Shown here: positions 3,273 through 32,352 of the stretch, in pieces | Position numbering within the stretch: position 1 is the first letter of the stretch | Layout: every line of letters begins with the position of its first letter | Source: Minisyncoccia bacterium | GTDB taxonomy: Bacteria > Patescibacteriota > Minisyncoccia > Phycocordibacterales > UBA918 | Direction: 5' to 3' | DNA length: 64,000 nucleotides | Assembly: GCA_046293175.1 (NCBI GenBank) | Contig: JBKBPM010000002.1 | Location: 19,176 to 83,175 of the forward strand | Program-made: the position numbers and the translations under genes | Notes under the pieces: model-generated | The model's input: only the letters and a program-made list of their open reading frames with translations | Databases searched by the model: none | What the model was told of the DNA's origin: nothing

Positions 3273-5611
3273 GTCCAGTTAGTAATTTCAATTGGATCGT
3301 CGCCGTGTTCGATAATGTACGCACGGTGTGATTCGAGCTTTTCTTGATAGACGTCGCGGAGTTGCTTGGCTTCCTGGGCCGTGATGACACGCGCGTGTTC
3401 AGCAATGGCAAACGCTTCCATCGCGAGATGATACCGGTCGACGTGATTGCGGACCATCATGTCAAAGGCGGTAGTGGTTGAACCACTTTCTTCGTAGCCG
3501 TGGACAGTAAAGCGAGTGGCATCTCCCCCATAATCAAAGAGGATTTGTTTGATGGTCTGTGGGTAGCCGTGGAAGTTGATGCGAACTGGTTTGTCTTCAG
3601 TAAAGTAGTCTTCAAATTCATGCCGAAGGACGAGGTGCTTGGAGTTGCCAAGTCCTCCGCCTGAAAGGGCATTGATGTTCACGTAGCGCATACGGAAAGC
3701 AGGGATTTCACGACGGACGATACTGATGGCCGCGAGCGTCTCCTGGGTTGGGTAGTCACCGGCTGAGGCAAAAACCATATGAGGGTCGTTGTCGGTAGCA
3801 AAGTCCCAAATAGCAATACCCATATCGATATCACGCTTGGCTTCAGTCGCGGTCCGCCAGATTGGGAGCGGGCGCTTTTCACAAACCATCACATTAATCT
3901 CTCGTTCACTATCCATCATGCGGGCAAAGGCTGCGAGCGCTAAGTTAGCGTCCGCTGGAAAATAGACATTGGTGAAATCACTTTGGCGTTGGAGTACTCC
4001 ATCAATAAAGCCGGGGTTCTGGTGCGAGAAGCCATTATGCTCTTGGCGCCAGCCAGTTGAAGTGAGGATGTAATTTAAAGACGCAATCGTGCCGCGCCAT
4101 GGCACCTGACGCGCAATCTTGAGGAACTTCGCGTACTGGTCGGTCATACTCGCAACAATCTGCGCAAAGGCTTCGTAAGACACGAGGAGCCCATGACGAC
4201 CAGTGAGTACGTACCCTTGGAGCAATCCCTGGAGACTGTGTTCGGAAAGCATCTCGAGGACTCGCCCATCGCGCGAGATGTCTTTGTCCCAGGGCTTTAG
4301 GGGCCAGAGAAAAGAGCGGGTGGTCGTCTCAAAGACAGCGTGGATTTTGTTTGAGTAGGTTTCATCCGGCGACATAAGACGGAGATTGCGACGGTCGGCA
4401 TTAAGCGTCATGGTATCGCGCAGGTAGGCACCAATTTTTTCCATACTACTTTCCATACCGCAGATGGGATCATCGAGGTTGCAGGTGTTTCCCGAACTAT
4501 AGGCGCTCGTGTCTGGGAGCACCAGCTTCTGGTAGTGCGGCTGACCACCACGGGCGTACGCTGAATTACCCATGCGTCGCTCGGGCGACGGAACCAGTGA
4601 CTCAATACCAGCTGTGAAGCCCTGCCCACTAAAGAGTTCGTCAAAGTGGTAAGAGCGAAGCCAAGTCTCGAGGGCGGCGAGATGCGTCTCGTTGGTCTTC
4701 GCGAATTCAGCAATCACCTGGTGTGAGGTGTGATTGTCTTCAATACGCTTACCATCAAGCTCGGGAATACTGTGCCAACCTTTGGGGGTACGTAAAATAA
4801 TCATAGGCCAGCGTGGTGGTTCTTTGAGGTTCCCCTCGCGAGCAATGTACTGGGTAAACTGAATAGCCGACACGGCGGTATCAAGTACCTCCATCATGCG
4901 GGTATGCACATCGGCCTCGGTATAGGCATCAACAATGTGTGGCTCGTAGCCATAACCGATGAATAGCGCGGTTAGTTCTTCGTCGCTCATCCGCCCGGCA
5001 AAAGTTGGACCAGAAATCTTGTACCCATTGAGGTGAAGAATTGGTAGCACAGCTCCATTGGTCGCTGGATCAACAAGCTTATTGAGGTGCCAAGCGGTCG
5101 CGGTAGGACCGGTTTCAAATTCACCATCACCAATGAGACACGCCGCGATAAGGGACGGATTATCAAGGACGGCACCGTAGGCGGTAGCAAGCGCGTAACC
5201 GAGTTCCCCACCTTCGAGAATCACTCCCGGAGCTTCCGGGTTACTGTGACTCGGGAAACCATACGGCCAACTAAACTGCCCAGCAAGGTAGGACAAGCCG
5301 GCTTCGGTACGAGGGATTTTTTCGTAGTACTGGCTGAGGGTACCTTCGAGGAAAAGATTCGCTTGTATCGCTGGAAAACCGTGGCCCGGACCAAGCACAA
5401 AGAGCATGTCGAGGTCACGAGCGACGATGGCGCGATTGAGGTGAGCGTAGGTAAAGTTGATACCTGGGCAGGTACCCCAGTGGCCCAAGAGACGAGACTT
5501 CACATGCTCCGGCGCCAATGGCTCCTCAAGGAGAAAGTTGGCTTGTAAGTAGATTTGAATGGCCGAGAGATAATCTGCGGCGCGGATGTATTCCAAAAGA
5601 GCTTCGCGCAT
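3257..5611 (-). CDS. xfp: xylulose-5-phosphate/fructose-6-phosphate phosphoketolase
   Basis: About 784 aa from internal Met MREALLEYIRAADYLSA; GHWGTCPG TPP-binding hallmark; upstream 10 codons of ORF likely not translated. Confidence 0.9.
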   Translation of the reverse strand: MREALLEYIRAADYLSAIQIYLQANFLLEEPLAPEHVKSRLLGHWGTCPGINFTYAHLNRAIVARDLDMLFVLGPGHGFPAIQANLFLEGTLSQYYEKIPRTEAGLSYLAGQFSWPYGFPSHSNPEAPGVILEGGELGYALATAYGAVLDNPSLIAACLIGDGEFETGPTATAWHLNKLVDPATNGAVLPILHLNGYKISGPTFAGRMSDEELTALFIGYGYEPHIVDAYTEADVHTRMMEVLDTAVSAIQFTQYIAREGNLKEPPRWPMIILRTPKGWHSIPELDGKRIEDNHTSHQVIAEFAKTNETHLAALETWLRSYHFDELFSGQGFTAGIESLVPSPERRMGNSAYARGGQPHYQKLVLPDTSAYSSGNTCNLDDPICGMESSMEKIGAYLRDTMTLNADRRNLRLMSPDETYSNKIHAVFETTTRSFLWPLKPWDKDISRDGRVLEMLSEHSLQGLLQGYVLTGRHGLLVSYEAFAQIVASMTDQYAKFLKIARQVPWRGTIASLNYILTSTGWRQEHNGFSHQNPGFIDGVLQRQSDFTNVYFPADANLALAAFARMMDSEREINVMVCEKRPLPIWRTATEAKRDIDMGIAIWDFATDNDPHMVFASAGDYPTQETLAAISIVRREIPAFRMRYVNINALSGGGLGNSKHLVLRHEFEDYFTEDKPVRINFHGYPQTIKQILFDYGGDATRFTVHGYEESGSTTTAFDMMVRNHVDRYHLAMEAFAIAEHARVITAQEAKQLRDVYQEKLESHRAYIIEHGDDPIEITNWTWHSR

Positions 5612-17225: not shown

Positions 17226-17262
17226 TAATAAAAAGAAAAAAGGCCGGGCTTTGCGTCCGGCC
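17226..17262 (-). terminator. rho-independent terminator of map
   Basis: ggccgg-gctttgcgt-ccggcc followed on minus strand by TTTTTTCTTTTT. Confidence 0.5.
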
Positions 17263-17427
17263 AGGTCCAACAGGGAGGATGCCGCGCCATAACCCCGACA
17301 CGACCAGGGGAACCACTACATTCAGTGTATGCCTGTACGTGGCTACTGTCAAAATAAATCTGGGACAAACAGATATACCCCGATCGATTGGAGTATTGTC
17401 AATATGAAATGTGAGGACGTTAACAGA

Positions 17428-22086: not shown

Positions 22087-22536
22087 TTAAAGTACCTTTC
22101 CGCCAGCTTTTTCGATTTTTACCTTCGCGGTAGCTGACACCTCACAACCTTCGATAGTGAGAGCCTTTGTAAGTTCGCCGGTAGCGAGAATCTTTACAGT
22201 TGGAGCTTTCTTGCGGATAGTTTCAACAATACCAGCCGCAACAAGCGTCTTTGGTGTAACCGTGTCCCCCGCCTTAAAAGCGAGCTCAAGTGCACCAACA
22301 TTCACTGGCATTGGTCGAACACGTTCAGCATTTACAGTGGCTGCTCGGTTCACACCATGACCACGGAGCTTTGGCAACTTTTTGATGAGGTCACGCATTT
22401 CTGGACGCATACTGTTACCAGCGCGTGCAGTCTGCCCCTTTCCACCACGACCGGAGGTCTTACCACGCTTACCACCGCGACCAATTCGCTTCTGGGCTTT
22501 CTTTTGGGTAGCTGGCTTTAATTCATGAAGCTGCAT
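22087..22536 (-). CDS. rplO: 50S ribosomal protein L15
   Basis: Gly/Arg/Lys-rich N-terminus typical of L15; directly follows S5 with no L30 gene. Confidence 0.9.
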   Translation of the reverse strand: MQLHELKPATQKKAQKRIGRGGKRGKTSGRGGKGQTARAGNSMRPEMRDLIKKLPKLRGHGVNRAATVNAERVRPMPVNVGALELAFKAGDTVTPKTLVAAGIVETIRKKAPTVKILATGELTKALTIEGCEVSATAKVKIEKAGGKVL

Positions 22537-22537
22537 G

Positions 22538-23173
22538 TTACTTTACGTTTTTTAGTAGCTTGAGCGCTTCGACTGCAGCGCGTGCATTGTTAAGTTTGTT
22601 CTTACTGCGTGAGAAAATCTTCGCGGTAACATCCTTCACTCCAGCCATTTCAAGGACAGTACGGACTGAAGAACCAGCCACGAGTCCTCGACCTGGAGCC
22701 GGCATAATCATTACTTCACTTGCGGCATACTTAGTATGTACATCATGTGGAATATGACTATCCTTATTCATTGGTACGACAATCATATGCTTCTTGGCAT
22801 CACGCACCGCCTTATCAATAGCGAGCTGGGTGTCCCCGGCCTTACCAATACCAACACCAACTTTACCCTTCTTGTCTCCGACGACCATCGCAACTGAGAA
22901 ACTGAAACGACGACCACCAGCCATCACGCGAGTAACGCGGCGAATACTGATAATCTTCTGATCAAACTCGGGACGAGTTCGTTCTGGACGAGCTGCCCCA
23001 CTACGACGTGTGCGGCGGGTGCCGCGATCTCCGCCTCGATCATTTCCACCACGGCGAGGACGGCGACCATCAGCTGGTACAGCGTCACTAGCGGGTGCAT
23101 CGGTCGCTGGCACATCTAGCGCCGCGATGTCTGGGGTGTTTTCCACCGCAGTTGTAGCTTCCTGCTCTGACAT
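22538..23173 (-). CDS. rpsE: 30S ribosomal protein S5 (with about 60-aa low-complexity N-terminal extension)
   Basis: Conserved S5 core RVTRVMAGGRRFSFSV...; Ala/Asp/Arg-rich extension. Confidence 0.9.
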   Translation of the reverse strand: MSEQEATTAVENTPDIAALDVPATDAPASDAVPADGRRPRRGGNDRGGDRGTRRTRRSGAARPERTRPEFDQKIISIRRVTRVMAGGRRFSFSVAMVVGDKKGKVGVGIGKAGDTQLAIDKAVRDAKKHMIVVPMNKDSHIPHDVHTKYAASEVMIMPAPGRGLVAGSSVRTVLEMAGVKDVTAKIFSRSKNKLNNARAAVEALKLLKNVK

Positions 23174-23200: not shown

Positions 23201-23548
23201 TTAGAAGGTAAGGCCATTGCCGCGAGCACTATCAGCAAGCGCAGCGATGAGTCCCTGGTACTTGAAGCCACCGCGGTCAAAAACCACTGTGGTTACTCCT
23301 TTGGCTACGGCAGCTTTAGCGATTGCGGCGCCGACTGCAATAGCTCCTTCGGTCATCGTACCTTTGGTCTGGCGTGAATCAGCTGAAGCCAAGGTAATAC
23401 CCTTTTGGTCATCGATAAGCTGGGCGTACACAAAGCGATTACTTTTGTAAATCGCGAGACGTGGACGTTCAGTCGTACCGGTAACTTTAGCGCGGATACG
23501 ATTATGCCTTACCGCACGCTTCGCATGTTTGTATTGAGTTTTTTCCAT
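23201..23548 (-). CDS. rplR: 50S ribosomal protein L18
   Basis: 115 aa from internal Met MEKTQYKHAKRAVRHNRIRAK; upstream ORF extension overlaps rplF. Confidence 0.85.
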   Translation of the reverse strand: MEKTQYKHAKRAVRHNRIRAKVTGTTERPRLAIYKSNRFVYAQLIDDQKGITLASADSRQTKGTMTEGAIAVGAAIAKAAVAKGVTTVVFDRGGFKYQGLIAALADSARGNGLTF

Positions 23549-23558
23549 ACGTGTGGGC

Positions 23559-24089
23559 TTACACAGCCTTCTTACCTTGCTTGCGGATAATAAATTCACC
23601 TCGGTAGCGAATACCCTTACCCTTATACGGTTCTGGCTTTCGTACCTTACGCACGTTCGCAGCAAACTGACCAAGGAGGTCTTTGTCGTGACTTGTGAGT
23701 GTGATTGTACTCTTCTCTACCGTAGCAGTGATGCCAGTTGGAATAGCGAGGAGTACTGGGTGTGAGTAGCCCATACTCAGTGAAAGATCGGTGCCTTTTA
23801 CTTCCGCACGGTACCCTACTCCTTCAATATCAAGAATCTTGGTGAAACCAGTGGTTACACCAACAATCATGTTACGGAGGTGTGCAGCATACGTACCCCA
23901 CAACGCTTTTGCGAGCACCGTGGTACCTGGAACCAGCGTGATGGTGTTACCCTCAATGGTGATGGTGACATCATCTCGAACTGGTCGGATTAATGTTCCC
24001 TTTGGTCCCTTCACGGTCAGATGACCGTCTGCGAGTGTTACCTCGACGCCAGCTGGAATAACTACTGGCAATTTTCCTAAACGACTCAT
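23559..24089 (-). CDS. rplF: 50S ribosomal protein L6
   Basis: 176 aa from Met MSRLGKLPVVIPAGVEV. Confidence 0.9.
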   Translation of the reverse strand: MSRLGKLPVVIPAGVEVTLADGHLTVKGPKGTLIRPVRDDVTITIEGNTITLVPGTTVLAKALWGTYAAHLRNMIVGVTTGFTKILDIEGVGYRAEVKGTDLSLSMGYSHPVLLAIPTGITATVEKSTITLTSHDKDLLGQFAANVRKVRKPEPYKGKGIRYRGEFIIRKQGKKAV

Positions 24090-24090
24090 A

Positions 24091-24483
24091 TTACCAAATG
24101 AGGAAAAGCTGCTCACCTCCGACATTCTTCGCCTTGGCCTCAACGTTGGTGAGGATACCAAGTGGAGTCGAGAGGATGAGATGCCCCTTTCCGAACTTAA
24201 CTTGATGGATAGATTCGACCTTTGTGTAGAGACGGCGACCTGGCTTACTAACGCGCTTAACGCCATTAATACGGTGTACCCCATCTTCATACTTGAGTGT
24301 TACTTCAAGTGTCTTCTGCGCAACTTTTCCTTTGGCTGTTGCTGCTTCAACGTATCCTGCCTCAACCAGCTTGTCTGCCACGGCATGACGGAGCTTTGAG
24401 TACGGCACCGAAACGGTCTTGTGACCAACTGCGCCCGCATTCTTGAGACGAATGATGAAATCGCCAATTGTATCGCCTACCAT
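24091..24483 (-). CDS. rpsH: 30S ribosomal protein S8
   Basis: 130 aa, typical S8. Confidence 0.9.
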
Positions 24484-24662
24484 GATGATTTCTTTATACC
24501 TGGTATATGTCCTTCGTGAGCCAATTCACGGAAGCAGATACGACAAATGTCGAAATCTCGCATGTATCCGTGCTTGCGGCCACAGAGCTTGCAGCGTCGT
24601 ACGACGCGTGAAGCATACTTCGGAGTACGCTGTGAGCGTACTATGACTGATGTTCGAGCCAC
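24477..24662 (-). CDS. rpsZ: 30S ribosomal protein S14 type Z (zinc-binding), GTG start
   Basis: 61 aa with CxxC...CxxC (CKLCGR...CRICFR). Confidence 0.9.
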
Positions 24663-24870
24663 TTTTTATTATGTTATCTGTACGAGGCCGTATCACCGAG
24701 AAAGTGGTGACGTACCTCCTAATAAATGTGCCAAAAAGGTCATAACGAGTACCGGGGACCGGTTCTCTACCCCTCCAACACACCACTTGGTCTAGAAATG
24801 CAGTGAGTTCATAGACTTCGCAGTTGGTCGCAATAGTATCAGAAAAATAAGAAATAGCAAGGTTTTTTGT

Positions 24871-24905
24871 CAAAAACAAAGCCCCCAGTTGGGGGCTTTG
24901 TTTTT
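24871..24905. terminator. bidirectional rho-independent terminator inside the rplE-rpsZ spacer
   Basis: acaaagccccc-agtt-gggggctttgt with T-runs on both strands; candidate minus-strand promoter TTGCTA-16-TACTAT just downstream (about 24840-24870). Confidence 0.65.
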
Positions 24906-24954
24906 GATCTTTTTTTGAGTATTACTCAACCTTCTGGAGTGGCACCCACCAGTT

Positions 24955-25043
24955 TCTAAGTAAAATCAGCGCACTAGGCGTTGATTTTACTTAGAACTGT
25001 CGGGCGAGGGCTCGCGGTTTTCTCTTTTGGTGAAAGAGAAAAC
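24955..25043. repeat. two unusually long perfect hairpins (17-bp stem 24955-24993; 11-bp stem 25016-25042) in rplE-rpsZ spacer
   Basis: ctaagtaaaatcagcgc-actag-gcgttgattttacttag; gttttctcttt-tggtg-aaagagaaaac. Confidence 0.55.
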
Positions 25044-25098
25044 ATCGCTGCGCCTCTTGCCCGCTGCCGCAAACAAAGTAGTTTGCTTGCTAAAAAGC

Positions 25099-25644
25099 TT
25101 ATTCAGCTTTTTGCAGCGGCAAGCCAATATGTCGCAGAAATGCTTCGGCTTCAGCCTTGGTCTTCGCGGTGGTCACAATCGTGACGGCAAATGAGAAAGC
25201 ATCCTTGAGTTCATCGTCAGCACATTCTGGAAAGATAGTGCTGTCTTTGATACCAATGGTAATATTTCCCATCTCGTCAATCGCAGTAGTCTTCAGACCG
25301 CGGAAGTCGCGCGTCTGTGGGATAGCAATGTGGATGAGCTTGTCGATGAAGTGAATCATGCGATCGCCACGGATAGTTACCTGGTGACCAATGATTTCGC
25401 CTGCACGAAGCTTAAATGAGGCAATTGATTGCTTCGCTGGACGAGCTGATGGCTTTTGTCCAGTGATGAGTGAAAGACGATCCACAATCAAGGCTTCGCG
25501 GTGTTTGTCTTGCACACGGCCAGTTCCCACTGACACCACCACCTTTTCGATTTTTGGTGTCTGCATCACATTCGTGTATCCGAAGGTACCTTTCAGGGCT
25601 TCGTAGGTTGAAGCAAGCTTTTGTTTGGTAGTTTCCATATGCAT
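25099..25644 (-). CDS. rplE: 50S ribosomal protein L5
   Basis: 181 aa; start overlaps rplX stop (TAATG). Confidence 0.9.
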   Translation of the reverse strand: MHMETTKQKLASTYEALKGTFGYTNVMQTPKIEKVVVSVGTGRVQDKHREALIVDRLSLITGQKPSARPAKQSIASFKLRAGEIIGHQVTIRGDRMIHFIDKLIHIAIPQTRDFRGLKTTAIDEMGNITIGIKDSTIFPECADDELKDAFSFAVTIVTTAKTKAEAEAFLRHIGLPLQKAE

Positions 25645-25955
25645 TAGATTTTCTTACCGCTTGGACGAGCAACACGAACTTTCTTCTTCTTGTCACCTTC
25701 GCCTTCGAAGATGTAGCCAACACGCACCGTCTTGTTACCCTCCATGAGTGCAACATTTGACGCGTCAATGGGCATACTCTTCTCGATAATCTGTCCCTGT
25801 GAACGAGCTGTCTTGCTCTTTTGGTGCTTGGTAGCGACGTTCACCCCTTCGATAACCACCTGATTCATGTCCTTTATGGTCATGAGGATGGTACCGGTCT
25901 TGCCTTTATCTTTTCCGGCAATCACCTTTACGGTGTCTCCTTTCTTGAGTTTCAT
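25644..25955 (-). CDS. rplX: 50S ribosomal protein L24
   Basis: KOW-motif protein MKLKKGDTVKVIAGKDKGK. Confidence 0.9.
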   Translation of the reverse strand: MKLKKGDTVKVIAGKDKGKTGTILMTIKDMNQVVIEGVNVATKHQKSKTARSQGQIIEKSMPIDASNVALMEGNKTVRVGYIFEGEGDKKKKVRVARPSGKKI

Positions 25956-25975
25956 ATGATGAAATAGTTAGGCGA

Positions 25976-26347
25976 CTACACGACCTCCGGGGCCAATGAG
26001 ACGATTTTCTGATAACCAGCTTCGGCTAATTCGCGAGGGATTGGACCAAAAACGCGATTCGCTTTTGGTTCTTTCTTCACCTTGTCGACAAGCACGACGG
26101 CGTTGTCGTCAAAGCTCACGTATGAGCCATCCTTGCGGCGGTAGGGCTTGACCTGGCGCACCACTACTCCGTACACAACATCCTTCTTCTTTACCGCTTT
26201 GCGAGGTTCAGCCGTCTGTACTGACAGTACGACCATTTCACCGAGCTCAGCGTAACGCTTCTTTGAGCCACCAAGAATCTTGAACACACGTCCGACCTTG
26301 GCACCCGAGTTGTCCGTAATCCGAACAATTGTCTGTGGCTGAATCAT
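25976..26347 (-). CDS. rplN: 50S ribosomal protein L14
   Basis: MIQPQTIVRITDNSGAK typical L14. Confidence 0.9.
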   Translation of the reverse strand: MIQPQTIVRITDNSGAKVGRVFKILGGSKKRYAELGEMVVLSVQTAEPRKAVKKKDVVYGVVVRQVKPYRRKDGSYVSFDDNAVVLVDKVKKEPKANRVFGPIPRELAEAGYQKIVSLAPEVV

Positions 26348-26357
26348 AGTGAATTCA

Positions 26358-26609
26358 TTACTTGGTTAAAAGAGTGAAGTGCTTGCGCTTTGACATTGGT
26401 CGAGTTTCGCGGATTTCTACAATCGCGCCTTCTTTCGCCGTATTGCCAGCATCGTGTACCAAGAACTTCTTAGTACGACGCATGAACTTCTTGTACTTTG
26501 GATGCATCACGTACCGCTCGACAGCGACCGTAATAGTATCCTTCATCTTCGTAGAAACGACAGTCCCTTTGAGGACACGACCGTTCTGTGTAGTTGAATT
26601 TGTTGTCAT
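26358..26609 (-). CDS. rpsQ: 30S ribosomal protein S17
   Basis: 83 aa typical S17. Confidence 0.9.
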   Translation of the reverse strand: MTTNSTTQNGRVLKGTVVSTKMKDTITVAVERYVMHPKYKKFMRRTKKFLVHDAGNTAKEGAIVEIRETRPMSKRKHFTLLTK

Positions 26610-28339: not shown

Positions 28340-28687
28340 TTATTTCTTCTTAGTAGCAGGTCCTGCTGATTTAGCGGCCTTGGCTGCTGCGATTTCGGCT
28401 TCCTTCTTCTTCTGTTCAAGTTCCTTCTGCATCTTACCTCCGTGACGATGGAACTTCTTCGTTGGTGAGAATTCACCAAGACGATGACCCACCATTTCTT
28501 CTGCAACAGTAACCGCAATGTGATCTTTCCCGTTGTGAACGCCGAAGGTGAAGCCAACCATTTCTGGCGAGATCATTGATGCTCGCGCCCAGGTCTTGAT
28601 TACACCACTCTCTCCGGGTTTCTTTCCGGCGATCTTTTTGAGGAGCTTTTCGTCTATGTATGGTCCTTTATATAATGATCTCGACAT
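28340..28687 (-). CDS. rpsS: 30S ribosomal protein S19
   Basis: From internal Met [15 protein letters not shown]; 4 extra upstream codons in ORF track probably not used. Confidence 0.9.
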
Positions 28688-29076
28688 ATTGAGATTCAAA
28701 CTCTGTTGCGGCGAATTTCTTTGTCGCTACAGTTTCGTGCGTCGTCACGGTACAAAAGTACCGCTCCTCGCCCTCAACTTAGGCTCCTCGAACTTCATCC
28801 ACACCAGACGTTTTCATAGTTAGAATTTGGTAATCCGCTTGCAGCTGTTTTCTCACGTACGAGAAAACCCGCGCAGTGGCGGTGCGATGAGAATCCCTCG
28901 TAAAGACAGGTAACGGCCGGCCTTAACAGGGATTCCCAACATCTTTCATCCCTTTGTTTTGACACTTCCTTGGTAACAGAACGTGCTGTTACCCGAGGTT
29001 GGAACGTGGCCAATACTACGTGAAATAAGGAAAAAAGTCAATCAAATGCTCTCCACCGAGTGCATCCGCATGTTGC

Positions 29077-29140
29077 TTGACATTAATAATTTATTAAATT
29101 ATTATTAAACTACTTCATTATTAATAATTTAAAACATATT
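29077..29140 (+). promoter_or_regulatory. vapB promoter (TTGACA-17-TATTAT) embedded in AT-rich inverted/direct repeats (putative antitoxin operator)
   Basis: ttaataattta / taaattattattaa inverted repeat and third attattaataattta copy between -35 and start codon. Confidence 0.5.
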
Positions 29141-29144
29141 TAGT

Positions 29145-29393
29145 ATGTATCAAACTAAAATAACCAGTCAAGGCACCATTTCTATCCCTGCCCCACTGCG
29201 CAAAAAATATGGTCTTATCCCAGGTGACACCGTAACTCTCGAGGACAACGGTAAAATCACCATTCAGAAAAGTCCCGACTTTGCCTCGGTGCGGGCTCAA
29301 AATGCTAAATACCTGGTTGGTAAAAAACCCTTTATTGCTAAAGGAGGTGATGGTTTTACCATGCATGTGTTAGAAAAATATGGCCAAAAATAA
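29145..29393 (+). CDS. vapB: AbrB/SpoVT (MazE/VapB-like) antitoxin
   Basis: SQGTISIPAPLRKKYGLIPGDTVTLE swapped-hairpin DNA-binding motif; overlaps downstream PIN gene by 14 nt. Confidence 0.7.
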   Translation: MYQTKITSQGTISIPAPLRKKYGLIPGDTVTLEDNGKITIQKSPDFASVRAQNAKYLVGKKPFIAKGGDGFTMHVLEKYGQK

Positions 29394-29784
29394 ATCCGGT
29401 TCGCTTGATACCAATATCTTGCTCCGCCTGATTGTAGGCGATGTTCCAGAGCAAACCGCTGTTATTGAAACTCTTTTGACCAAAGCGGCGGTGCTGCAAG
29501 TAGCCGATATTACCATCTTTGAGACTGTCTTTGTGTTACAAAGTTATTACAAATTTTCTCGGGAAGATATCTATGGGTCACTCACTGCAATTGTCCGTCA
29601 CCCTAAAATTAATTGTAACCGTCGGTTTTTTGAGCAAGCTTTTGCACTATATCGCCAGTACCCAAAACTCTCACTCGTAGACTGTGCTTTAACACTTTAT
29701 GCAGAACTGAACAATGCTTCGCCGTTATTCACCTTTGACAAAGATCTGGCCAAGTCATTAGCCAATACCCAAACATTGTCATGA
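29380..29784 (+). CDS. vapC: PIN-domain ribonuclease toxin
   Basis: LDTNILLRLIVGD (acidic residue 1), ITIFETVFVL, SLVDCALTLYAEL, FTFDKDL PIN signatures. Confidence 0.75.
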   Translation: MAKNKSGSLDTNILLRLIVGDVPEQTAVIETLLTKAAVLQVADITIFETVFVLQSYYKFSREDIYGSLTAIVRHPKINCNRRFFEQAFALYRQYPKLSLVDCALTLYAELNNASPLFTFDKDLAKSLANTQTLS

Positions 29785-30383
29785 TCACCCCTTCGCATCT
29801 CATTTATAGCTGGGCACTCGCCAAACAGACTGAAAAAGTGGCGGCGGGTGAACCAAACAAGTACCGCACGGCCGCCTTTGTTCTAGGCGCCCTGCTGCCA
29901 GATATTCCAGTCTATGTCTTCTTTTTGGTCTGTGGAATGCTGCTCGGCTATGGGCACGAACAACTCTGGGATGATATGTACTTTAATTCCGGCTGGTCGG
30001 TAGCCTTTACCCTCAGTCATTCCCTCCTCTTCTGGCCAAGCATCTACCTGGTAGCTAAGTACAAACGATGGTTTTTGGCGAAGTGGGTGGCTATTTCGGC
30101 CATTTTTCACATTGTGGTCGATTTTTGTGTGCATACGGCTGATGCCTACGCTCACTTTTGGCCGCTCACTGACTGGCGCTTTGTAAGCCCTATCTCCTAC
30201 TGGGACCGGGCGTTTTATGGACAATACGTAGGGTGTTTTGACGCCGCTTTGGTGCTTGGTCTCCTCTGCTGGCTCGCCACTCGCTACCGTGAGAGCAAGC
30301 AGCACTTTTTGATCTACGGACTTTTAGTTCTCGCTTTGGTACGTTTTGGACTCGAATGGTATAACCTCATCAAATATGCCTAA
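29781..30383 (+). CDS. hypothetical His-rich polytopic membrane protein (possibly YdjM/DUF457-like metal-dependent hydrolase)
   Basis: 200 aa, 5-6 TM helices, conserved-looking His/Asp in TM segments (FHIVVDFCVHTADAYAHFWPLTDW). Confidence 0.4.
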   Translation: MITPSHLIYSWALAKQTEKVAAGEPNKYRTAAFVLGALLPDIPVYVFFLVCGMLLGYGHEQLWDDMYFNSGWSVAFTLSHSLLFWPSIYLVAKYKRWFLAKWVAISAIFHIVVDFCVHTADAYAHFWPLTDWRFVSPISYWDRAFYGQYVGCFDAALVLGLLCWLATRYRESKQHFLIYGLLVLALVRFGLEWYNLIKYA

Positions 30384-30684
30384 ACCTCGCGGCAGCGAAC
30401 ATACCACCCTCACCGAAACGGCCGAGCTTCTCGTTCGGGAGCTCAAAAAGCAATCGGGTATCAAAATGATTGCACCAGGTATCATCGACGCTAAACGTTC
30501 AGGTAAGCGTTATATCACTGCAGTCTATACTTCGGCCGGTATTCACTTTATTGTCTCCGGGACCGGGGTGCAAAAAATTGCGGTGCACCTCTCCGATGCG
30601 GAAGATGGACCAAAGCTCGTGGCAACGCTGAAAAACGCAAAAGCCCTCAAGCAGTTTGCCTGGGGCGAGCGACACCGCGAATAA
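30376..30684 (+). CDS. hypothetical protein
   Basis: About 102 aa from ATG overlapping previous stop (ATGCCTAA); no motif recognised. Confidence 0.35.
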   Translation: MPKPRGSEHTTLTETAELLVRELKKQSGIKMIAPGIIDAKRSGKRYITAVYTSAGIHFIVSGTGVQKIAVHLSDAEDGPKLVATLKNAKALKQFAWGERHRE

Positions 30685-30691
30685 ATAGTGT

Positions 30692-31489
30692 CTAGAGCGT
30701 TTCTCGTGGTGGTTTTTTTGGTTGGAATTCTTCAGTGTGCGTTTTCCAGTCAATCACTGTATCATCTACAGGGTGAATTGGATCCTCTGATGCGATATGT
30801 CTAGGCACATCTCCAGCGTAGGGACTCTTAAAAATCTCATTTTTTGTGCTACTGGCACTGCCGTCCTTGACTGAGGCAATAATAGCCTCTTCTTTGGCCT
30901 TTTTATACATATCGAATTCTTTACTTGCGACAATTTCGGTACAAAGAGTGTCTACATCAACACTGGTGAAGGTCAGTGGAGTTAATACACGAATAGCATC
31001 TTTGATTTTTGCCAACACAGCCCTTGCATCTTGGTTGTTTGGATTTTCAATGTTGACAAGCGCCTCCATCAGTTTTGACTTCAAAAAATCATTACGTCCT
31101 AGCACCAACTTTAATTCTTCCAGTCGAGATTCTGGTTCTGCATTAAAATACTCAGCAACAGCTTTTTCCATGACCTCTACACCATACTCATCTCGAATTG
31201 CATCTTTTACATACGACAGCGCAATTATTTGTTCAGAAGTTAACTTTCCGTTTCGTTTCTGTGCGTCTCTGAGAACATTTAGAGTATTGAACATACTAAA
31301 ATTAGTTTGTTCAAGAGACTTTAATACATCTGCTGTCTGCGGTGCTTGTTCTGCTTTAGGTGTGATAAAGCGCTTTACAAAATTATCCAATGCCATAATG
31401 CCAATAGTATACCAGAAACCCAAGAGGGCAACACAAAACCACCCAATCAATGGGCGGTTTTGTGTTGCTTTGAGGCAAATGAGCAACAA
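30692..31489 (-). CDS. hypothetical N-terminally anchored protein, translationally coupled downstream of rplB
   Basis: 265 aa; start 3 nt after rplB stop; AT-richer than flanking ribosomal genes. Confidence 0.45.
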   Translation of the reverse strand: MLLICLKATQNRPLIGWFCVALLGFWYTIGIMALDNFVKRFITPKAEQAPQTADVLKSLEQTNFSMFNTLNVLRDAQKRNGKLTSEQIIALSYVKDAIRDEYGVEVMEKAVAEYFNAEPESRLEELKLVLGRNDFLKSKLMEALVNIENPNNQDARAVLAKIKDAIRVLTPLTFTSVDVDTLCTEIVASKEFDMYKKAKEEAIIASVKDGSASSTKNEIFKSPYAGDVPRHIASEDPIHPVDDTVIDWKTHTEEFQPKKPPRETL

Positions 31490-31491
31490 TC

Positions 31492-32352
31492 TTATGACTG
31501 TCCGCGCATCAAGCGTCCTGGCTTGCGGCGAGTGACAATAAACTTGTTACTAAACTTCTTTGGTGAGCGAGTCTTCTGACCCTTGCCCACTGGACGACCC
31601 TGCTTTGTGCGCGCACGACGGTGACCACGTGGACTGCGTCCCTCACCACCTCCGTGTGGGTGGTCTACCGCGTTCTTGGCTGAACCGCGAGTCTTTGGAC
31701 GAATACCGAGGTGACGAGCACGTCCAGCCTTTCCAATCTTCACGAGGCGGTATTCTTCGTTTGATACCGCACCAATCGATGCCCACGCTTGGCTTATAAT
31801 CTTACGCACTTCAGATGATGGCAACTTAACGAGGGTGTACCCAGCGTCTTGGGCCACGACTTCAGCGTAGTTACCAGCGGAACGAGCGATCCGAGCTCCA
31901 GCGCCAGGCTTGAGTTCAATGTTGAAGATAAAGGCACCAACCGGAATCTTCCCAAGCGGGAGACGGTTACCAGCCTTTGGCTTTGCCTCAGTAGAGGTAA
32001 TAATCTCGTCTCCAACCGCTACCTGCTGTGGAACGAGGATATACCGACGTTCACCGTCCTTGTAGAGAACCAGGGCAATAAAGCCTGAACGGTATGGGTC
32101 ATATTCAATGGTTTCAATCCGAGCTGGAACATCCTTCTTGTCGAACTTGAAGTCAACGAAACGATAGGTTCGCTTGTTTCCACCACCACGGTTGAGAGTG
32201 GTGGTACGACCGAGGTTGTTGCGGCCACCAGTACTGCGTCCACCCTTTGTCAACGACTTCAGTGGGTTACTCTTCGTACTTGTGAGCTTCTTTTTGTACT
32301 CAATCACAGTTCCATCGCGGCGACCGGCTGAGGTGGGTTTATATGCTTTCAT
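31492..32352 (-). CDS. rplB: 50S ribosomal protein L2
   Basis: 286 aa typical L2. Confidence 0.95.
   Translation of the reverse strand: MKAYKPTSAGRRDGTVIEYKKKLTSTKSNPLKSLTKGGRSTGGRNNLGRTTTLNRGGGNKRTYRFVDFKFDKKDVPARIETIEYDPYRSGFIALVLYKDGERRYILVPQQVAVGDEIITSTEAKPKAGNRLPLGKIPVGAFIFNIELKPGAGARIARSAGNYAEVVAQDAGYTLVKLPSSEVRKIISQAWASIGAVSNEEYRLVKIGKAGRARHLGIRPKTRGSAKNAVDHPHGGGEGRSPRGHRRARTKQGRPVGKGQKTRSPKKFSNKFIVTRRKPGRLMRGQS

Follow-up and report, generated by a model that had tools for sequence, protein, structure and literature searches.

The rplE-rpsZ junction

We analyzed the spacer between the ribosomal protein genes rplE and rpsZ in a 64,000-nt stretch of DNA (hereafter the window) from contig JBKBPM010000002.1 of the Minisyncoccia bacterium assembly GCA_046293175.1. 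According to the open reading frame (ORF) list and Pfam matches, the ribosomal-protein cluster, which includes rplE, rpsZ and rpsH, lies entirely on the minus strand. The gene rplE (ribosomal protein L5; Pfam Ribosomal_L5 and L5_C) is located at 25099-25644, rpsZ, which codes for a zinc-ribbon S14 protein, at 24477-24662 and rpsH (S8) at 24091-24483. An earlier reading made from the letters alone (the sequence-only reading) had assigned a GTG start codon to rpsZ. It is confirmed; an in-frame TAA lies two codons upstream, and the stop codon of rpsZ overlaps the start codon of rpsH (AUGGUAG). Between rplE and rpsZ lies a gap of 436 bp (24663-25098). Read on the minus strand, it holds a multi-helix element, here called element 1, followed by a predicted terminator, a predicted promoter and an rpsZ leader with a predicted binding site for S8. 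The operon is regarded as split because terminator and promoter lie between the two genes, as the sequence-only reading had already proposed. Its treatment of the stems and the leader as one structure has to be given up, as they are two separate modules divided by terminator and promoter. The spacer is not a single leader; it is probably the place where the spc operon is divided and one transcription unit meets the next.

The structures, the conservation and covariation, the contexts of the family, the layout of arms and copies and the match of the invariant nucleotides to the S8 site were computed directly. The minus strand of the spacer shows a folding z-score of -8.41, and element 1 together with the rplE tail a z-score of -7.12; neither value was reached by any shuffle, in agreement with the structured spacer described before. 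Four inverted repeats were found. The first (24954-24972/24978-24996; 19 nt, 95% complementary) contains the previously noticed 17-bp perfect stem. The second (25017-25027/25033-25043; 11 nt, 100%) and the third (25092-25099/25105-25112; 8 nt, 100%, lying across the rplE stop codon) correspond to the 11-bp stem and the 8-bp hairpin of the same reading. The fourth (24870-24887/24890-24907; 18 nt, 100%) is flanked by an A-run and a T-run and forms the terminator. No second copy of any spacer segment was detected in the window. A search of 23500-26500 with Rfam 15, listed to E <= 10, gave no match at the gathering score. The matches to ohsC, sraL and the Phe and Thr leaders near the terminator all scored below gathering and are generic matches to a terminator hairpin. 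An ORF of 117 amino acids on the minus strand (24526-24879), which overlaps the leader, is considered spurious; no Pfam family matches it, and its reading frame differs from that of rpsZ.

The junction in related genomes

Close relatives of L5 are encoded in 24 genome loci from metagenome-assembled genomes of the Parcubacteria/Kaiserbacteria type. Contigs and loci of relatives are given as L-numbers (e.g., L002), and the covariance models are named R1 and R3 (element 1) and R2 (rpsZ leader). Among the 18 relatives in which both genes were found, the distance between rplE and rpsZ ranges from 105 to 1341 bp. Three loci contain no rpsZ within 2-3 kb of rplE, and in L077 and L088 the rplE and rpsZ halves are about 5.4-6.5 kb apart. 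The cargo in the gap is unrelated between loci and comprises a toxin-antitoxin-like pair, an antisense membrane ORF and a secreted protein. These distances and the unrelated cargo indicate that the spc operon is broken at this position throughout the lineage. The junction appears as an insertion hot spot in L023 (2117-2616), L002 (1375-2037), L003 (3652-4731) and L088 (6066-12593), where the cargo can also comprise other genes over as much as 6.5 kb.

A BLAST search with the spacer revealed two independent conserved blocks. Block 1 comprises the first ~177 nt after rplE and is shared by L007, L008 and L010. The hairpins are therefore not absent from all relatives, which the sequence-only reading had named as a sign of a simple insertion scar. 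Block 2 covers the final ~200 nt ahead of rpsZ; L002 has kept it but is without block 1. In the L5 tree, the rplE-linked copies of element 1 fill one clade with at least five nested absences. L002, the closest relative, is without element 1 and carries GCUCGACAGAGAGUAAG directly after the rplE stop codon (1208-1230). This segment resembles pieces of the element (GCU..., CGACAG, ...GAGUAA) and may be a deletion scar.

Element 1 and its family

Element 1 covers ~177 nt on the minus strand (24922-25098) and starts directly at the rplE stop codon. It is matched by R1 with 171.6 bits and by R3 with 136.5 bits, the covariance-model match spanning 24918-25106. An alignment of the window with L007, L008 and L010 yielded a consensus of several helices, with compensatory changes at 18 of its 60 pairs. 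Hairpin P2 (GCAAGCAAAC-UACU-UUGUUUGC, 25069-25090) splits the inverted 5' arm of the element, which is described below; this helix (helix 2) is 99.4% paired, and all of its nine pairs are changed on both sides. The P4/P5 arm (25005-25056) includes the 11-bp perfect stem (25017-25043), and the P6 arm (24944-25004) contains the 17-19-bp stem (24954-24996). Both arms were identified by their inverted repeats and by covariation. Within P6, the duplex AGUUCUaAGUA/UACUUAGAAACU carries a conserved U.U mismatch and a conserved bulged A.

The exact two-part pattern AGUUCUNNGUA/UACUUAGAAACU, taken from P6, is present in 64 metagenome loci. R1 gave 57 sense-strand matches among the metagenome loci at E <= 3e-7 (56 of them non-redundant), all on Parcubacteria-type contigs, and its antisense matches cover the palindromic hairpin only. 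Copies without the exact pattern are found by R3 directly after tRNA genes (L048, 4055-4196; L041, 6946-7069). The motifs CGGAG and CGAG, which flank P5, lie outside the search pattern and are nonetheless conserved in the family. Across 55 distinct element sequences in model-fitted alignments, 91.6% of the paired cells can pair, compared with 34-48% when the partners are slid, and changes on both sides occur in 52 of the 60 pairs. The covariation score of 0.412 stands against 0.04-0.08 in the slid controls. G.U combinations are more frequent than A.C combinations in the paired cells (142 vs. 48), which favors the sense strand as the folded strand. In the window, R1 scores 171.6 bits on the minus strand and only 31.7 bits, from the palindromic hairpin, on the plus strand. 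The small plus-strand RNA considered in the sequence-only reading is contradicted by both results.

Most copies stand at the 3' ends of tRNA, tmRNA or ribosomal-protein genes. Among the 56 copies, 23 follow a tRNA gene on the same strand, usually 20-60 nt downstream (a few at ~130-240 nt), with tRNAs for Gly, His, Met, Tyr, Lys, Asp, Arg, Leu, Glu, Ile and Phe. Another 16 start at an rplE stop codon, two to three follow tmRNA and one follows rplB (L085, 6338-6514). Six copies at contig starts are not assessable, and about seven are located elsewhere. Several contigs hold two or three copies, some of them in tandem, and copies within one contig differ strongly yet keep the fold. Tandem copies after a single tRNA or tmRNA gene were seen in L026 (~500-570), L041 (6778-7069), L046, L060 (2575-2842) and L073 (7547-7713). 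An intrinsic terminator is found within about 100 nt downstream in 25 of 50 family members. About a third of the copies (19/56) either face a convergent gene or for other reasons lie outside any 5' untranslated region (UTR), and others have no callable downstream ORF. In L050 (2-1018 and 1953-2393) and L062 (5086-6603 and 2514-2936), clusters of tRNA genes plus elements adjoin genes for the CCA-adding enzyme and for UPF0102, a YraN-type nuclease; the shared neighborhood of these two unrelated loci may be plain synteny.

No Rfam family matches element 1, and ten other loci that bear copies gave only tRNA and tmRNA matches. A described RNA of this kind from Parcubacteria or other bacteria of the candidate phyla radiation (CPR) was not found in searches of the literature. 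The exact pattern is absent from the viral contigs searched, where one chance hairpin match of 15 bits was obtained. The long stems had been compared with remnants of an inserted repeat or a miniature inverted-repeat transposable element (MITE). This holds in so far as the element belongs to a repeated, insertion-like family and is not a ribosomal leader. It is not a decaying scar, as compensatory changes have preserved the fold of the rplE copies in hosts that share only about 70% identity in L5.

Arms copied from the 3' end of the host gene

The general plan of the element is a conserved core between an inverted copy (5' side) and a direct copy (3' side) of the 3' end of the host gene. In the window, the copied rplE tail (X1) comprises the last 23 nt of the gene (UGCCGCUGCAAAAAGCUGAAUAA, 25099-25121), and its direct copy X2 (UGCCACUCCAGAAGGUUGAGUAA) lies at 24922-24944; both were delimited by comparison with each other. 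The inverted copy X' is split into two halves. The first, X'a (AGCUUUUU, 25092-25099), was recognized from the inverted repeat, the minimum free energy (MFE) fold and helix P1 of the consensus; it can pair either with 25105-25112, forming the 8-bp hairpin at the stop codon, or with X2 in P1. The second, X'b (GCAGC.GGCA, 25058-25067), complements UGCCGCUGC in the rplE tail; its pairing with X2 gives P3. It was identified in the MFE fold, and helix 3 is 94.9% paired with covariation. In the MFE fold of the window, the partner of X' is the real end of rplE (8 + 9 bp), whereas in the family consensus it is X2.

Compared with shuffled sequences, the direct repeat reaches significance (p <= 0.01) in 23 of 45 copies. 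At tRNA genes, it runs from position ~56 in the T-loop through the 3' strands of T-stem and acceptor stem to the discriminator base and sometimes into the trailer, for example UCGAUUCCGGGCCCCGCAACAAAUA in L048 and CGAUUCUCCCUACCCGCACAAAAAU in L076. The 3' ends of tmRNA are repeated in the same way in L042 and L053. The duplications vary between 12 and 55 nt across the copies; those in L056 and L069 exceed 50 nt and are perfect. The strand 5' of the core is the complement of the repeat and is often split by P2. In L080, this arm reproduces both G.U positions of the tRNA-Glu acceptor stem, so it looks copied from the 5' strand of the tRNA and not made as a perfect complement.

Compared with the real rplE tail in 12 rplE-linked loci, X2 keeps the codons of P-L-Q/K-K, with 20 synonymous and 5 non-synonymous differences (the X2 equivalents examined include those of L008, L010, L031, L032, L039, L044, L071 and L074). 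The window X2 would read VPLQKVE*, whereas rplE itself ends with LPLQKAE*. In L044, X2 reads PLQKAE*, the usual end of L5, and the gene itself ends with PLQKPAV*. Possible explanations of this codon pattern are gene conversion, reversible excision or pairing constraints that fall by chance on third codon positions. The TAA of the window X2 lies 177 nt (59 codons) past the real rplE stop codon.

Terminator and promoter

Downstream of element 1, a predicted intrinsic terminator with an 18-bp perfect stem was found on the minus strand (24870-24907). It has the G+C-rich stem-loop and the U-run of this class, with GCCCCC/GGGGGC in the center and A-tract and U-tract in the arms, and it may end the rplE transcription unit. 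The terminator was called on the plus strand; since it is symmetric, it reads alike on the minus strand, in line with the bidirectional terminator of the sequence-only reading. No plus-strand gene reads into it, and therefore the bidirectionality has no evident use.

The predicted promoter of the rpsZ unit (24833-24860, minus strand) consists of the -35 hexamer TTGCTA (24860-24855), a 16-nt spacer and the extended -10 element TGaTACTAT (24841-24833). It is the TTGCTA-16-TACTAT promoter already noticed, and both hexamers and the TG are kept in L002 (TTGCTA ... TGgTAGTAT) with a diverged spacer. Other relatives have boxes of the TGGTAAT- or TATAGT-type, similar to an extended -10 element, about 95-110 nt upstream of the leader helix. 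An alternative candidate on the same strand is TTGACA-18-TATTTT (24873-24844); the TTGCTA candidate is the one conserved in L002. Transcription of the rpsZ unit would start near 24826.

A predicted S8 binding site upstream of rpsZ

BLAST traced the leader to L002 only, and the predicted S8 site emerged only when the 220 nt upstream of rpsZ were lined up across the loci. The alignment shows a shared motif consisting of AUUAUUAGG, an outer stem, N-GUC-stem-loop-stem-GAUAC-N and the 3' strand of the outer stem. In the window, this predicted mimic of an S8 binding site, including its AUUUAUUAGG lead-in, extends over 24683-24727 on the minus strand; it was identified by alignment, by covariation and with the set of identity nucleotides of PMC4176348. 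The outer stem is formed by 24714-24718 and 24684-24688, and the core reads ACGUC...GAUACG (24713-24709/24694-24689). Upstream of it (24747-24767), the hairpin GAGAACCGG-UCC-CCGGUACUC is kept in L002 as GAGUACUAGC-UUUG-CUAGUACUC by compensatory changes. The two-helix fold is present in 15 of 15 leader loci. Their outer stems differ in sequence and stay paired (GAGG/CCUC, GGAAGC/GGCUUC, GGGUAUG/CAUACC, CGGGGUA/UACCCCG). All 15 training sites of R2 lie upstream of rpsZ, and a search of 518 kb with this model returned only them and one new locus (L088). The inner helix is 100% paired, with one G-C and one U-A pair invariant in 16 of 16 loci and four distal pairs that covary.

The five invariant nucleotides of these 16 loci (15/15 in the leader alignment) correspond to G597, U598, A640, A642 and C643 of 16S rRNA. 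In this numbering, the window core reads A595 (24713), C596 (24712), G597 (24711), U598 (24710), A640 (24693), U641 (24692), A642 (24691), C643 (24690) and G644 (24689). The primary S8 site is formed by the (G597-C643).U641 triple, the invariant A642 and A640, and the variant with C596-G644 is that of Thermus (PMC4176348). The identity set of helix 21, namely G597-C643, U598-A640, the extruded N641 and A642, is thus present in the window leader. The pair 596-644 is of Watson-Crick type in 10 of 15 leaders, as C-G like in Thermus, as G-C, or as A-U like in E. coli. The mimic stands 20 nt ahead of the rpsZ GTG, on the S8-encoding mRNA, and the 20-nt linker is A-rich and without a Shine-Dalgarno sequence in the window and in the relatives. 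The leader is well supported by its sequence as a putative S8 autoregulatory site. The sequence-only reading had suspected an autoregulatory rpsZ leader, and the structured, autoregulatory-looking 5' UTR agrees with it; the likely regulator is S8 and not S14, as the invariant nucleotides are those of the S8 site. In L004 (~3745-3790) and L008 (~4190-4240), short tandem repeats (CCCTGGTCCCTAAACCC twice, and CTAAGGACTAAGGACTAA) stand between the mimic and the rpsZ start and have pushed the mimic to 100-112 nt from the start codon.

Working model and alternative explanations

Taken as a whole, we consider a model with a split operon, element 1 as a 3' block and an S8 leader to be probable; in it, the ends of the transcripts, binding by S8 and its way of repressing, and a function or mobility of element 1, if any, are deduced from the data above. 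The rplE transcript would end in the large multi-helix block, whichever end X' pairs with, followed by the strong intrinsic terminator. Judged by its position, the block may define the 3' end of the upstream unit and protect it from 3' exonucleases. Element 1 would have arrived by an insertion that duplicated the 3' end of its target and would later have been retained. Clade placement and compensatory changes point to long retention of the rplE-linked element under selection, and we infer an element that was inserted once and kept as the structured 3' end of highly expressed units. Transcription would restart at a sigma-70-type promoter with extended -10 element, yielding a leader of ~164 nt that ends in a helix mimicking the S8 site of 16S helix 21. 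When S8 is in excess of free 16S rRNA, it would bind the leader at -21 to -57 and hinder loading of the 30S subunit on the A-rich start region without Shine-Dalgarno sequence. Repression would then spread by translational coupling from rpsZ to rpsH, i.e., S8 itself, and to later genes.

Several observations weigh against this model. Terminator, promoter and 5' end are sequence predictions only. The last 172 nt, which form the rpsZ leader, have an unexceptional folding energy (z = -1.33); the support of the leader comes from covariation. In 5 of 15 leaders, 596-644 is a purine-purine or A.C mismatch, possibly in another register. The site is located 100-150 nt from the start codon in L004, L008, L012, L023 and L074, and at this distance simple occlusion of the ribosome cannot work. 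Regarding element 1, many tRNA-linked copies stand behind a terminator-like hairpin and may therefore be poorly transcribed, which weakens a role at the RNA level. The locus-specific arms, inverted plus direct, are not needed for a simple 3' stabilizer. The near-invariance of the P6 sequence is overstated, as the exact search pattern was taken from it, and the pair counts are inflated, since the alignments A3, A6 and A7 were fitted to the models.

As a tentative and rather doubtful extension, element 1 might represent an undescribed kind of element, a conserved folded scaffold whose sense and antisense arms change from locus to locus to match the 3' end of the neighbor. It could act as a self-targeting guide with which bacteria of reduced genome survey or process their tRNA, tmRNA and ribosomal-protein transcripts at the 3' end, or as a nucleic-acid-guided mechanism of insertion that copies the target end.

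Among the alternatives, it is possible, though we would not expect it, that element 1 is, or was until recently, selfish, mobile and non-autonomous. In this case, it would insert at the 3' ends of highly transcribed genes, namely those of tRNA and tmRNA, rplE and rplB, and duplicate the target end; its hairpins would serve its own mobility as RNA or single-stranded DNA, there would be no benefit for the host and the operon split would be collateral. This is consistent with the many unrelated loci with arms specific to each, the perfect repeats in L056 and L069, which look young, the tandem copies, the patchy presence among relatives and the occupied junctions, which are insertion hot spots. 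The repeat at tRNA genes, starting in the T-loop (~56) and running to the discriminator or beyond, also fits, as this sublocation from T-loop to 3' end is reportedly the one used by integrases that target tRNA and tmRNA genes. The direct repeat of the target 3' end expected for an integrative element was found, but no recombinase among the neighboring proteins scanned. The insert itself measures about 200 nt. None of the 30 proteins on five contigs (about 44 kb with 12 strong element matches) belongs to an integrase, transposase or reverse-transcriptase family; 24 matched unrelated, mostly housekeeping Pfam families and six had no Pfam match. The absence of the exact pattern from the viral contigs searched and the single copy in the window speak against mobility as well. 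The rplE copies keep their fold by compensatory changes over deep host divergence, which implies selection at this locus. Moreover, no transposition or integration chemistry known to us would copy 12-55 nt of the target in both orientations, inverted and direct.

A scaffold-plus-guide RNA seems improbable to us. Here, the core would bind a protein, the 5' arm would be an antisense guide to the 3' end of the product of the neighboring gene and X2 would mask the guide in cis, so that the ends of tRNAs, tmRNA and ribosomal-protein mRNAs are monitored, processed or regulated. The constant core, the arms that match each neighbor exactly, the ability of the arm to pair with either the real 3' end or its copy and the invariant, bulged and mismatched P6 duplex, which resembles a protein site, would be explained in this way. 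X2 is kept identical to the tRNA-Met 3' end in the distinct contigs L040, L048 and L061, which is not expected of a decaying orphan repeat. On the other hand, no partner protein was identified, 22 of 45 copies have no recognizable repeat, terminator-like hairpins often stand between tRNA and element, and the architecture is the sole basis of this explanation.

Very unlikely is a riboswitch-like aptamer that senses a ligand or protein and uses the terminator at 24870-24907 as expression platform, so that it decides how much transcription passes from rplE on to rpsZ-rpsH. In its favor, the conserved fold is complex and has a terminator behind it, and in the window the element sits between co-oriented genes. 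However, the 19 copies outside any 5' UTR and those without callable downstream ORF do not fit, rpsZ has its own conserved promoter, no alternative pairing of element and terminator was seen and L002 keeps the rpsZ leader without the element. More generally, the copies are not consistently found in the 5' UTRs of a coherent gene set, so that a riboswitch or other 5' cis-regulator was rejected as a class. Least credible, with hardly any probability left, is a single structured rpsZ leader, possibly controlled by S14, in which a hairpin brings the distant AGGAGG (24719-24714, about 52 nt before GTG), proposed as Shine-Dalgarno sequence in the sequence-only reading, next to the start codon: AGGAGG does occur, with a hairpin separating it from the start, but it is base-paired as the 5' strand of the covarying outer stem of the S8-site mimic, relatives have GGAAGC, GGGUAUG or CGGGGUA with matching partners instead, a distance of 20 nt to GTG remains at the 3' foot of the helix and the invariant nucleotides are those of the S8 site and not of any S14 site.

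Comparison with known systems

In E. coli, S8 represses the spc operon through a helix-21 mimic at the rplE start, an RNA which is described in PMC3616713 as narrowly gammaproteobacterial. Both the E. coli operator and the window leader have the helix with G597-C643, U598-A640, the bulged N641 and A642, to which a 595/596-644 element may be added; both are located on the mRNA that encodes S8, with translationally coupled downstream genes. They differ in position, as the E. coli operator overlaps the rplE start, whereas the window site precedes rpsZ, within the 5' UTR of a transcription unit of its own, 20-150 nt from the start codon (window and relatives). The conserved AUUAUUAGG lead-in and the upstream hairpin are further differences. 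The host lineage also differs, as the window leader is of Parcubacteria type and the E. coli structure, in the description of PMC3616713, is confined to gammaproteobacteria. No Rfam family matches the window S8 leader, and among 20 newer ribosomal leaders (PMC7247131) there is none for uS8, uS14 or uL5. As a putative S8 operator, the leader is new in its placement upstream of rpsZ and in its Parcubacteria-type lineage.

Element 1 resembles the terminator-associated orphan motifs published in 2017, including Drum (PMC5737381), in its elaborate fold, in being rarely located in a 5' UTR and in being often followed by a Rho-independent terminator. It is unlike them in its link to the 3' ends of tRNA, tmRNA and ribosomal-protein genes instead of one protein family, and in its locus-specific arms copied from the neighbor. 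Drum and the other motifs are different RNAs; all are in Rfam and none matched. With tyrosine-integrase elements at tRNA and tmRNA 3' ends, element 1 shares the direct repeat starting in the T-loop, the intact upstream gene and the additional use of protein-gene ends. Unlike in these elements, only about 170-230 nt lie between the repeats, the scanned neighbors contain no integrase, more than 12 different targets each have a matching repeat, an inverted target copy is present in addition, and the interior behaves as a folded single strand with covariation. MITE- and REP-type (repetitive extragenic palindromic) repeats such as Correia/NEMIS, REP/BIME and ERIC are likewise multi-copy, non-coding, hairpin-rich and located at gene 3' ends; they can stabilize the upstream mRNA and may split or rewire operons. 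In element 1, by contrast, the terminal inverted repeat is copied from the target, the duplications comprise 12-55 nt compared with 2-10 bp, copies on the same contig diverge yet keep the fold and only one copy is present in the 64-kb window. A classical MITE was rejected because the arms differ per locus and equal the 3' end of the neighbor, and because the duplications are of variable length.

Further candidates were rejected. A T-box had been suggested by GGUGGGUGCCAC in the window and GUGGGUACCGC in L010, but this segment is the locus-specific copy of rplE and no feature of the family. By inspection, a K-turn at the base of P6 does not fit in bulge length and G.A register, and integron attC R/L boxes, dif/Xer sites and the GTTC target of IS91 are partial look-alikes without consistent fit. 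For a group I intron with the repeat boundaries as splice sites, the upstream boundary follows U, but there is no consistent terminal G and no Rfam intron match; X2 is preceded by C in L048, L076 and L080 and by U in L026, and the window alone has G there. The template and variable repeats of a diversity-generating retroelement are excluded by the short repeat and by differences that are not adenine-specific. The omega RNAs of TnpB and IscB and the bridge RNA of IS110 share only the layout of a scaffold followed by flank-derived sequence, and no gene for TnpB, IscB or a DEDD recombinase lies beside any examined copy. None of the known element types compared explains the inverted and direct copies of the host end in element 1.

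Other features of the window

The S10 operon is also broken in the window, by an insert of ~2.8 kb (28700-31491) between rplB (31492-32352) and rpsS (28340-28699). The insert contains an ORF of 265 amino acids without Pfam family on the operon strand and, on the opposite strand, a PIN-domain protein, a YdjM-like membrane protein and a weak match to DUF2103. No copy of element 1 was detected at this rplB-rpsS junction, whereas the rplB 3' end of L085 has one. There are no tRNA genes in the 64-kb window. No L30 gene is found between rpsE and rplO, which are 1 nt apart (22536-22538); this absence is typical of CPR bacteria. The only match at gathering level in the window was SorX (RF02784) at 17236-17310 on the minus strand (61.7 bits, cut-off 46.6). 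SorX has been described from Rhodobacter, and the near-identical match to CCUCCCUGUUGGACCUGGCCGG...CCGGCCUUUUUU is unexpected in a Parcubacteria-type genome.

Biological significance

To our knowledge, little has been learned about autogenous control of spc genes beyond E. coli and related bacteria, and bacteria of the Parcubacteria type have very few recognizable regulators. The leader described here is a candidate S8 operator for these bacteria, in which a known protein-RNA recognition would be placed at another gene junction. The family of element 1 is widespread, strongly covarying and not cataloged in Rfam; its architecture could be assigned to none of the known classes compared, and it marks the ends of the most highly expressed genes of the translation apparatus. 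If it acts as a 3'-end module, it would show how these organisms end and protect their key transcripts. If it is mobile, its insertion chemistry would lie outside the known classes and would account for the fixed junctions at which ribosomal-protein operons of this lineage are broken. As a guide, it would represent a new RNA-guided system.

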